A DNA stretch of 64,000 nucleotides from Escherichia coli. GTDB lineage: Bacteria > Pseudomonadota > Gammaproteobacteria > Enterobacterales > Enterobacteriaceae. Shown piece after piece: positions 24,584 through 25,176 of the stretch (within the stretch, counting starts at the first letter, position 1; each line of letters starts with the position of its first letter). The notes under the pieces were generated by a model, which saw nothing but the letters and a program-made list of their open reading frames with translations, was not told the DNA's origin and searched no databases. The stretch is from NCBI RefSeq assembly GCF_044324875.1, contig NZ_CP172185.1; one strand, written 5' to 3'. The position numbers and the translations under genes were made by a program.

Positions 24584-24600
24584 TGGTGGGTCGTGCAGGA
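24584..24600 (-). other. 17-nt tRNA-Lys 3'-end fragment (…UCCUGCACGACCCACCA) in a spacer
   Basis: Exact match to the last 17 nt of the tRNA-Lys gene, followed by non-tRNA spacer. Confidence 0.7.
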
Positions 24601-24681
24601 TGACTCGCTTCGCTCGCCCTACGGGCCGTTGCTGGCGCAACGTTATCCTTCACGCTTAACATCTGAGTTTGATGTTAAAAT

Positions 24682-24757
24682 TGGTGGGTCGTGCAGGATT
24701 CGAACCTGCGACCAATTGATTAAAAGTCAACTGCTCTACCAACTGAGCTAACGACCC
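24682..24757 (-). tRNA. lysY: tRNA-Lys (UUU)
   Basis: Identical tRNA-Lys copy. Confidence 0.9.
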
Positions 24758-24760
24758 GAG

Positions 24761-24836
24761 TGGTGGGTGATGACGGGATCGAACCGCCGACCCCCTCCTT
24801 GTAAGGGAGGTGCTCTCCCAGCTGAGCTAATCACCC
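24761..24836 (-). tRNA. valZ: tRNA-Val (UAC)
   Basis: Reverse complement matches tRNA-Val; anticodon loop CCTTACAAGG. Confidence 0.9.
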
Positions 24837-24887
24837 GATACTGCGCTGGATACTACAAACTACTTCCACCGAACCCACCGTAATTAG

Positions 24888-24963
24888 TGGTGGGTCGTGC
24901 AGGATTCGAACCTGCGACCAATTGATTAAAAGTCAACTGCTCTACCAACTGAGCTAACGACCC
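24888..24963 (-). tRNA. lysW: tRNA-Lys (UUU)
   Basis: Identical tRNA-Lys copy. Confidence 0.9.
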
Positions 24964-24965
24964 GG

Positions 24966-25041
24966 TGGTGGGTGATGACGGGATCGAACCGCCGACCCCC
25001 TCCTTGTAAGGGAGGTGCTCTCCCAGCTGAGCTAATCACCC
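24966..25041 (-). tRNA. valT: tRNA-Val (UAC)
   Basis: Identical tRNA-Val copy. Confidence 0.9.
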
Positions 25042-25075
25042 GATACTACGCTGGATACTACAACTAACTAGGTTA

Positions 25076-25092
25076 GTGGTGGATCGTGCAGG
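25076..25092 (-). other. Second tRNA-Lys 3'-end fragment (one mismatch) in a spacer
   Basis: tggtggatcgtgcagga differs from tggtgggtcgtgcagga at one position; the adjoining spacer resembles the one at 24601-24680. Confidence 0.65.
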
Positions 25093-25176
25093 ATGACTCG
25101 ACTTCGTCTCGCCCTTCGGGCCGTTGCTGATGCAACGTTATCCTTCACGTTTTACTACCGCTTCCACCTTAGCGAT

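Follow-up and report, generated by a model that had tools for sequence, protein, structure and literature searches.

The lysT tRNA operon of Escherichia coli raises the question of why the 3′ end of a tRNA should be found again in spacers between the tRNA genes. In the window analyzed here, i.e., the whole 64-kb stretch of E. coli DNA, this operon lies on the minus strand (24351-25252), with cpoB upstream and nadA downstream. An earlier note on the same DNA had listed seven tRNAs for the operon, five tRNA-Lys and two tRNA-Val, and had reported copies of the tRNA-Lys 3′ end, one of them with a single mismatch, in the lysY-lysZ and lysT-valT spacers. ARAGORN indeed finds exactly seven tRNA genes on the operon strand, five tRNA-Lys(UUU) and two tRNA-Val(UAC), and both copies are confirmed. 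The two spacer units that end in these copies belong to the catalogued RtT RNA family, i.e., they are already known and merely unannotated. The broader reading, that both are short-form RtT repeats, each a co-transcribed, minihelix-like module that is trimmed to CCA and gained or lost by recombination between repeats, is considered probable, with appreciable room for doubt.

Sequence and fold of the two spacer units

The 17-mer TCCTGCACGACCCACCA, i.e., the last 17 nt of tRNA-Lys, occurs seven times on the minus strand, compared with 0.01 occurrences expected from shuffled sequence. Five are in the tRNA-Lys genes, one exact copy is at 24584-24600, and the copy with the single mismatch is at 25077-25093. 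The identity to tRNA-Lys reaches 18 nt (tRNA positions 59-76), the preceding A being shared, so that 18/18 nt match in unit 2 and 17/18 in unit 1. As the earlier note had stated, each unit ends, in transcript orientation, in a CCA-bearing acceptor 3′ strand. The units, their copies and the preceding tRNA genes are given below, together with the scores of the Rfam model RF00391 (RtT RNA) and of R1, a covariance model built solely from Lys and Arg short-form units.

25177-25252, minus strand: lysT, tRNA-Lys(UUU), the first gene of the operon (ARAGORN; Rfam tRNA, 79.2 bits)
25077-25176, minus strand: unit 1, RtT-type short form (RF00391, 60.0 bits; R1, 94.7 bits at 25077-25153)
25077-25094, minus strand: copy of tRNA-Lys 59-76 in unit 1, AUCCUGCACGAUCCACCA, with the mismatch at 25083 (pattern search)
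24682-24757, minus strand: lysY, tRNA-Lys(UUU), preceding unit 2 (ARAGORN)
24584-24681, minus strand: unit 2, RtT-type short form (RF00391, 54.4 bits; R1, 80.1 bits at 24584-24658; fold)
24584-24601, minus strand: exact 18-nt copy of the tRNA-Lys 3′ end in unit 2 (pattern search)

The lysT-valT spacer is 135 nt long and begins with the 100 nt of unit 1, at the end of which the final 18 nt of lysT are copied; the lysY-lysZ spacer is 146 nt long and begins with the 98 nt of unit 2. In each unit, 80-83 nt separate the direct repeats. A repeat search finds a 48-nt pair of 90% identity between the units (24613-24660 and 25108-25155), and their alignment extends to about 58 related nt with a 2-nt indel. 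The leaders, i.e., the first 23-27 nt, are unrelated, and the “about 80 nt” of related sequence claimed previously is thus somewhat overstated. The 51-nt lysW-valZ spacer (24837-24887, minus strand) aligns with both ends of the lysT-valT spacer (25042-25176), through GGUGG...CGGU at the 5′ end and UAGUUGUAGUAUCCAGCG.AGUAUC at the 3′ end, suggesting that an older Lys-to-Val spacer, and not the repeat itself, may be the source of the unit 1 leader.

The mismatch in unit 1 is a C>T change (T at 25083, minus strand) that occurs in 0 of 5,426 complete E. coli genomes, among which the 76-nt query has no match of at least 99% identity. In a single-sequence prediction, this change replaces an A·C mismatch with the leader GGUGGA by an A-U pair. 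A private single-nucleotide polymorphism, a compensatory change and a sequencing error are all conceivable explanations.

RNAfold predicts for each unit a closing stem P1 around three hairpins. The stem is formed by the 5′ arm CGUGAAGGAU and by AUCCUGCACG, the latter consisting of the copied 3′ strand of the T-stem and three nucleotides of the acceptor. The predicted elements are as follows.

25163-25168, minus strand: unit 1, GGUGGA in the leader, predicted partner of UCCACC of the copied 3′ end (RNAfold minimum-energy and centroid, single sequence)
25140-25149, minus strand: unit 1, 5′ arm CGUGAAGGAU, pairing with AUCCUGCACG in P1, 9/10 pairs (fold)
25122-25137, minus strand: unit 1, hairpin A, CGUUGC AUCA GCAACG (fold; covariation)
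25111-25121, minus strand: unit 1, hairpin B, GCCC GAA GGGC (fold; invariant in the short-form alignment)
25100-25108, minus strand: unit 1, hairpin C, variable, GAC GAA GUC (pairing across the family)
24659-24681, minus strand: unit 2, leader hairpin (fold)
24645-24654, minus strand: unit 2, 5′ arm (fold)
24627-24642, minus strand: unit 2, hairpin A (fold)
24616-24626, minus strand: unit 2, hairpin B (fold)
24607-24613, minus strand: unit 2, hairpin C (fold)

These folds are more stable than those of shuffled sequence (z −3.4 to −5.8), and the module of unit 1 is kept between the two tRNA folds when the 287-nt lysT-spacer-valT stretch is folded as a whole (minimum-energy and centroid). The tRNA-like fold proposed in the earlier note therefore stands as far as stability and a partial acceptor/T-stem minihelix are concerned, but the structure is not a cloverleaf, and its stem closes three non-tRNA hairpins. 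Across 106 distinct family members, hairpin A is 97.7% paired with both-side changes in 5/6 pairs, and hairpin C, whose stem sequences vary among units and differ by 2 nt between units 1 and 2, is 98.9% paired with both-side changes in 3/3 pairs. The observed values were not attained in any of 500 shuffles, and pairing in slid registers was only 33-46%. An independent analysis likewise supports the Rfam RtT structure by covariation (PMC7657543, PMC8250186).

The 17-18 nt of tRNA sequence, together with an Arg-rich 26-aa open reading frame (ORF) in unit 1 (25068-25148), could be read as a sign of tRNA pseudogenes or of a small basic peptide resembling tpr of the tyrT repeats. A pseudo-tRNA was rejected, since neither ARAGORN nor the Rfam tRNA model finds a tRNA or pseudo-tRNA in spacers 24536-24681 and 25042-25176, which is also the outcome of the tRNA-finder check suggested previously. 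A coding role was rejected as well: the ORFs of 20 aa or more in the units have GTG or TTG as start codons and show no conservation, the frames of units 1 and 2 differ from each other (through the 2-nt difference in hairpin C) and from that of tpr, and the indels in hairpin C are not multiples of three. Either version of this explanation is barely conceivable.

Relation to the tyrT repeats and to the cognate tRNA

Both units exceed the curated gathering threshold of RF00391 (45 bits). The matches, 25077-25245 for unit 1 and 24584-24750 for unit 2 on the minus strand, stop exactly at the extra CCA ends and are the sole RtT matches in the window. The same model gives scores of 133-137 bits for the K-12 tyrT repeats, i.e., the annotated rttR RNA and three others. 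R1 detects these four tyrT repeats at 29.5-31.1 bits and, in the window, only the two units; detection is thus reciprocal, as a model made from short forms finds the tyrT repeats. Common to the lysT and tyrT units is the core CGUUGC-loop-GCAACG-R-CCCGNAGGGYGA-variable hairpin-GAGUMAUCC, including the three core hairpins (CGUUGC/GCAACG, CCCGNAGGG and the variable hairpin) with conserved pairing, and this core continues into the terminal 19 nt of tRNA-Tyr in tyrT and into the terminal 18 nt of tRNA-Lys in lysT. The genomic setting is also that of RtT, the units directly following lysT and lysY on the same strand. Previous publications already recognize rtT-like sequences in other tRNA operons.

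The prototype is the 171-nt rtT RNA (rttR, b4425), which is cut out of the tyrT transcript and derives from the 178-bp repeats of tyrT-tyrV. These repeats resemble the lysT units in being co-transcribed 3′ of a tRNA, in ending with the copied last 17-19 nt including CCA, in having the core hairpins and a closing stem of arm and copied strand, and in their variable copy number. However, the internal lysT units are about 75-100 nt long, compared with 130-178 nt for the tyrT form, and lack its 5′ half, i.e., the GAACC...GGUUCGA and GAGCG...CGAGA hairpins, such that the window units run directly from the 5′ arm to hairpin A. They also carry the tRNA-Lys 3′ end and lie between tRNA genes, whereas the tyrT repeats carry the tRNA-Tyr end and follow the last gene. 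The released RNA is documented for tyrT rtT; the lysT units are known here from sequence.

The family was surveyed by scanning one genome per species in 100,044 species for the core pattern, which gave at least 120 loci. Those listed are nearly all in Gammaproteobacteria, including many Enterobacterales genera, and further matches listed come from Cellvibrionaceae, Halieaceae, Marinobacterium, Sedimenticola, Thiogranum, Amphritea, Halopseudomonas and Rhodanobacteraceae. Among the 152 core matches listed, to which the counts given here apply, 114 lie downstream of a same-strand tRNA in the fetched DNA, and in 100 of these 114 the unit terminates, 14 nt past the ATCC junction, with 18 nt or more that are identical to the 3′ end of that tRNA. 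The scan pattern imposed just four (ATCC) of the 18 copied nucleotides. The exact copies are distributed over the upstream tRNAs as follows.

Tyr: 33
Lys(UUU): 31
Arg(ACG): 11
Pro(CGG): 7
Pro(UGG): 3
Gln(UUG): 4
Gln(CUG): 2
Ser (three anticodons): 5
Arg(CCG): 3
Lys(CUU): 1

The copies comprise 23 distinct 18-mers, with five variants each for Tyr, Lys and Gln. Since these include lineage-specific variants of one and the same tRNA, the copy tracks the resident tRNA. The 5′ arm was examined by a test in which the complement of ATCC, at its expected distance, served as anchor and six type-specific positions were scored. The arm pairs at 4.85/6 positions with the fragment of its own tRNA, compared with 2.95/6 for fragments of other tRNA types, and at least five positions are paired in 61/78 units but in only 77/1339 controls. 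This anchored test replaced an unanchored search for the best 8-nt complement, which did not discriminate (6.47 for own and 6.13 for foreign fragments). The Arg(ACG) arm GCACCAGGGAGG is identical at 10/12 positions to the acceptor-5′ plus T-stem-5′ strands of its tRNA, leaving ACCA unpaired, and the equivalent closing stem in tyrT, GGGGAAGGA/UCCUUCCCC, matches the tRNA-Tyr type, showing that the arm changes together with the tRNA. Judged from these sequences, the element is a putative cognate-tRNA minihelix in which the T-loop is replaced by the core.

Two forms are distinguished by the position of the arm. In the short form, the arm lies 28 nt before the core; to this form belong the internal Lys units, among them units 1 and 2 of the window, and the Arg(ACG) units found in operons of other enterobacteria. 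In the long form (Tyr, Gln, Pro, Ser, Arg(CCG) and terminal Lys units), the arm lies 65-73 nt before the core, and two extra hairpins are present, one of which ends in xxGGUUCGA, i.e., the cognate T-stem 5′ strand and the start of the T-loop; the GGUUCGA motif is found in 71/79 long-form units. Tandem arrays of 2-4 units also occur, with at least two units at 20 loci and at least three at 5.

A few core matches are organized differently. Those lacking a nearby tRNA or a CCA-ending tail comprise four loci in a Rhodanobacteraceae metagenome-assembled genome (MAG) and six further loci; the four Rhodanobacteraceae loci share a 39-40-nt spacing and could represent another repeat family that reuses the CCCGNAGGG hairpin, or chance. 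At two Citrobacter loci (9371-9408 and 1589-1626 in the fetched DNA), the core lies 42 nt upstream of a tRNA-Tyr gene and its tail (ATCCTTACCGCTATAG...) is not a tRNA 3′ end, so these may be decayed or differently organized tyrT-leader units.

Minihelices of the acceptor and T arms are model substrates of RNase P, the CCA-adding enzyme and some aminoacyl-tRNA synthetases. The RtT units resemble them in having a continuous helix of T-stem and acceptor stem and a single-stranded 3′ ...NCCA, but differ in that a structured core of 45-90 nt stands in place of the T-loop. The Lys units depart further, with only positions 59-68 paired and 8 nt either single-stranded or paired with the remote GGUGG. 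A tentative proposal, which we would not rate as likely, is that the whole RtT family consists of cognate-tRNA minihelix mimics, i.e., of a conserved core inside a sequence copied from, and kept identical to, the preceding tRNA. This proposal would cover the Lys, Tyr, Arg, Pro, Gln and Ser units, in which the 5′ arm and the second hairpin of the long form co-vary with the tRNA, and candidate recognizers would be RNase P, 3′ exonucleases, the CCA-adding enzyme, RelA/SpoT or a synthetase. If true, the proposal would imply an active process, i.e., gene conversion with the adjacent tRNA gene as donor or selection for recognition by the tRNA machinery, and the units would be tRNA-end decoys and not inert spacers. 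The match of the 3′ copy and the 5′ arm to the neighboring tRNA is in any case a concrete clue to mechanism. No statement of a general cognate-minihelix rule was found in the searchable literature, a search that leaves the key older papers outside, and the rule may be under-described.

Filled and empty sites among E. coli strains

The other spacers of the window provide the first indication that the units come and go. The remaining features of the operon are given below.

24966-25041, minus strand: tRNA-Val (ARAGORN)
24888-24963, minus strand: tRNA-Lys (ARAGORN)
24837-24887, minus strand: lysW-valZ spacer, 51 nt, an empty site by comparison with K-12 (NC_000913.3)
24761-24836, minus strand: tRNA-Val (ARAGORN)
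24460-24535, minus strand: tRNA-Lys (ARAGORN)
24427-24459, minus strand: lysZ-lysQ spacer, 33 nt, an empty site by comparison with K-12, where a 99-nt unit sits
24351-24426, minus strand: tRNA-Lys (ARAGORN)
24320-24346, minus strand: operon terminator 3′ of lysQ, with no terminal RtT unit behind it (sequence)

In the K-12 lysW-valZ spacer, a 98-nt unit is inserted exactly after the tRNA-Lys CCA. Eleven E. coli loci were then compared by spacer lengths and model matches, a sample that replaced junction-spanning megablast counts, which are uninformative because the pieces are joined across the indel.

K-12, JME64 and 26561: four internal units, terminal unit present
MS119-7: three internal units, terminal unit present
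KFu015: three internal units, no terminal unit
This window and strain 1190: two internal units, no terminal unit
Strain 136: one internal unit, no terminal unit
S2 and H22: no internal unit, no terminal unit

The internal units of K-12 follow lysT, lysW, lysY and lysZ, and its fifth unit is a long form behind the lysQ terminator. In S2 and H22, none of the seven tRNA genes is missing and the spacers measure 35, 51, 48 and 33 nt, from which it follows that the operon can do without the units. Wherever filled and empty alleles were compared, the empty one lacked exactly one stretch made up of leader, core and 17-nt copy; the 35-nt lysT-valT spacer of S2 and H22, for instance, corresponds to the 35 nt after the pseudo-CCA of unit 1 in the window, and their 48-nt lysY-lysZ spacer to the part after unit 2. 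Units are lost (or gained) precisely between direct repeats. Position 1, i.e., the lysT-valT spacer, is also filled in Citrobacter, Pluralibacter and Pseudescherichia, which favors loss in the E. coli lineages.

The terminal units found after lysQ and lysV in many E. coli strains, which PGAP labels “RtT sRNA”, share with the internal units the tRNA-Lys 3′ copy, hairpins B and C, the operon family and the presence/absence behavior, but they are of the long form (126 nt) and lie behind an operon terminator that is duplicated with them. The internal units carry no label in RefSeq/PGAP records, as the earlier note had anticipated in calling such spacer units not usually annotated. In K-12, the terminal unit after lysQ (2154-2330 in the fetched locus; 46.7 bits with the Rfam model) has a terminator before it and a second identical terminator after it, giving a direct repeat of about 53 nt (17 nt plus terminator). 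The equivalent unit after lysV, in the valU operon, is at 1421-1546 in the fetched locus, and the lysV terminator has been reported to be identical (PMC4176162). In E. coli IH5 (NZ_CP168949.1, 4224775-4226702), cpoB is followed by a single tRNA-Lys and then by yrdA, with the rest of the operon and nadA not present there, reflecting either a collapsed operon or a chromosome rearranged at a tRNA-Lys copy.

The earlier note had regarded the units as probably native to E. coli, and the window is 99.8% identical to strain 042, an identity given for the nadA-pnuC-zitB segment next to the operon. It had also regarded them as relics of unequal recombination between tRNA copies. Recombination at the repeats is borne out by the precise filled and empty alleles, but the status of a mere relic is not, as the units belong to a catalogued family that follows at least six other tRNA kinds and shows compensatory changes. 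In its full form, this explanation takes the units to be functionless products of a partial tRNA-Lys gene duplication or of unequal recombination, which drift neutrally and are passively removed from the transcript. Consistent with it, S2 and H22 keep seven tRNAs without any unit, every unit position is polymorphic, some copies elsewhere have decayed 3′ ends, unit 1 of the window carries a private mismatch, and no stable spacer RNA has been reported (PMC4176162). However, at least seven tRNA isoacceptor groups are followed by the same core, in lineages of Gammaproteobacteria that include Enterobacterales and Cellvibrionales, compensatory changes keep hairpins A and C paired, and the complementarity of the 5′ arm is specific for the cognate tRNA strand. 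The core, the compensatory pairing and the cognate arm would not be retained by neutral relics; the relic explanation is therefore inadequate, and we regard it as unlikely.

The same exact boundaries at direct repeats, together with the tandem arrays, the many tRNA loci per genome (e.g., 12 places in one Klebsiella chromosome) and the boundary at tRNA position 58/59, where many integrase att sites also lie, might instead suggest miniature selfish or mobile DNA elements that target tRNA 3′ halves, the 17-18 nt being an att-like or target-site duplication and the core serving the propagation of the element. Integrase att duplications at tRNA 3′ ends are indeed similar in that a direct repeat starts in the T-loop and leaves the tRNA gene intact, but they flank kilobase-scale islands rather than about 80 nt, and the RtT core is found at many tRNA types, each with its cognate repeat. 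An integrative element with a tRNA att site was rejected for the window units, since the 80-83 nt between the repeats hold no conserved ORF and no integrase. More generally, no recombinase or integrase is associated with the units, which are always co-oriented and directly downstream of a tRNA, and a 3′ copy and 5′ arm fitted to each tRNA type would be unexpected from one site-specific enzyme. The phage and plasmid BLAST matches are very large chromosome-like records (“plasmids” of 0.28-5 Mb and “phage” of 0.5-0.7 Mb), besides a few small Klebsiella and Salmonella phage or plasmid matches, which were left aside. Slippage between 17-nt repeats about 100 nt apart explains the losses without mobility, and the filled position 1 in the three related genera points to loss rather than gain in E. 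coli. Mobility of this kind thus appears quite improbable.

Under the preferred reading as short-form RtT repeats, the tRNA 3′ end and its copy would act as 17-18-nt direct repeats, between which recombination or replication slippage would delete units precisely and unequal exchange could add them, which would account for both the strain distribution in E. coli and the tandem arrays in other species. As the units are dispensable for the operon, any role would be accessory. The family is old, widespread and structurally constrained, and its members are individually dispensable; rtT itself was described 35 years ago. For annotation, the internal lysT spacers represent RtT repeats that current pipelines leave unlabeled. 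The copy number of 0-5 across E. coli strains affects spacer lengths, probe and primer design and the assembly of this repeat-rich operon. The natural filled and empty alleles, of which the unit-free ones may be under-described, offer ready-made, isogenic-like material, with S2 and H22 as ready controls.

Proposed processing and neighboring features

Each unit would be transcribed within the lysT operon precursor, where its closing stem would form a partial tRNA minihelix with the conserved three-hairpin core in the place of the T-loop. The pseudo-3′ end ...CCACCA is followed by an A/U-rich stretch, as in a real tRNA, and for this reason the enzymes of tRNA 3′ maturation may be expected to treat the unit end as a tRNA 3′ end and trim it to CCA. 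An endonuclease would cut in the A/U-rich trailer, exonucleases would then trim up to CCA, and a by-product RNA of 75-100 nt would be released from the lysT spacer, by analogy with the RNA documented for tyrT rtT. The annotated rttR likewise stops at the CCA of the first tyrT repeat. On the operon strand, no internal promoters or terminators were found; the two terminator-like calls are hairpin A read antisense and do not exceed the number expected by chance. RNase T is inhibited by the CC of CCA. A related effect of C residues after CCA has been cited (PMC4176162).

Elsewhere in the family, Northern signals have been obtained in Actinobacillus pleuropneumoniae for RtT homologues located beside tRNA-Lys and tRNA-Asn genes (PMC4986893), and RtT is expressed in Xanthomonas (PMC3300014). 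For the lysT operon, precursors have been described in RNase P and RNase E mutants (PMC4176162). What such an RNA might do can be approached from two precedents. According to papers citing Bosl and Kersten (1991), rtT reportedly modulates the response to amino-acid starvation, and a link to the stringent response has been proposed. The other precedent, reportedly that of Lalaouna et al. (2015), a study cited in PMC8082180, is the 3′ external transcribed spacer of leuZ (3′ETS-leuZ) and the internal spacers of metZ-metW-metV. These are, as the lysT units would be, tRNA operon by-products that could persist and act in trans, and they absorb RyhB and RybB. If the lysT units were base-pairing regulators or sponges of this kind, their location in tRNA operon spacers released by processing and their stable predicted structure would be in keeping. 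However, the known sponges act through short single-stranded complementarity to RyhB/RybB and are not known to carry a tRNA 3′-end copy, whereas the most conserved parts of the RtT units are paired stems rather than single-stranded seeds, the identity kept at the tRNA 3′ end is not explained by sponge function, and the units are absent from some strains. A sponge function is accordingly judged very unlikely.

Several observations weigh against the reading of the units as short-form RtT repeats trimmed to CCA. In a Northern analysis with probes in all four K-12 lysT spacers, no discrete spacer RNA was reported in the wild type (PMC4176162). Only the 3′ 70 positions of RF00391 align to the unit itself, while positions 1-57 align to the upstream tRNA-Lys body with a 44-nt insertion (cmscan); with the 5′ third of the model falling on tRNA-Lys, the internal units have to be regarded as a truncated short form. 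The conservation of hairpin B and of the ATCC junction partly reflects how the family was collected, as both were forced by the scan pattern. In addition, the Lys closing stem covers only tRNA positions 59-68 and includes an A·G mismatch; it thus falls short of a full 12-bp minihelix, making recognition by RNase P a matter of speculation. Lastly, about 10% of the listed units elsewhere have decayed 3′ copies, which, together with the unit-free strains, indicates that selection on single copies is weak.

Three further RNA features of the window were noted. A sub-threshold Rfam match to YrlA (44 vs. 69 bits; 24375-24515, minus strand) spans lysZ-lysQ; this identity was dismissed as most likely an artifact, since the match covers two real tRNA-Lys genes, which resemble the tRNA-like domain of YrlA. 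REP/BIME repeats have been suggested for rtT-like clusters (PMC2965389), but this identity was rejected for the units, as the REP-derived Rfam family naRNA4 matches the window only at 55137-55302. There, two adjacent naRNA4/CssrE matches (RF02564; 55137-55207, 77.6 bits, and 55232-55302, 86.8 bits) lie on the plus strand and represent REP-type sequence that has no relation to the lysT units. The interval between pal and cpoB, a short distance upstream of the operon, contains a strong Rfam match to the CpoB/ybgF intercistronic RNA thermometer (RF02782; 26178-26316, minus strand, 142 bits).

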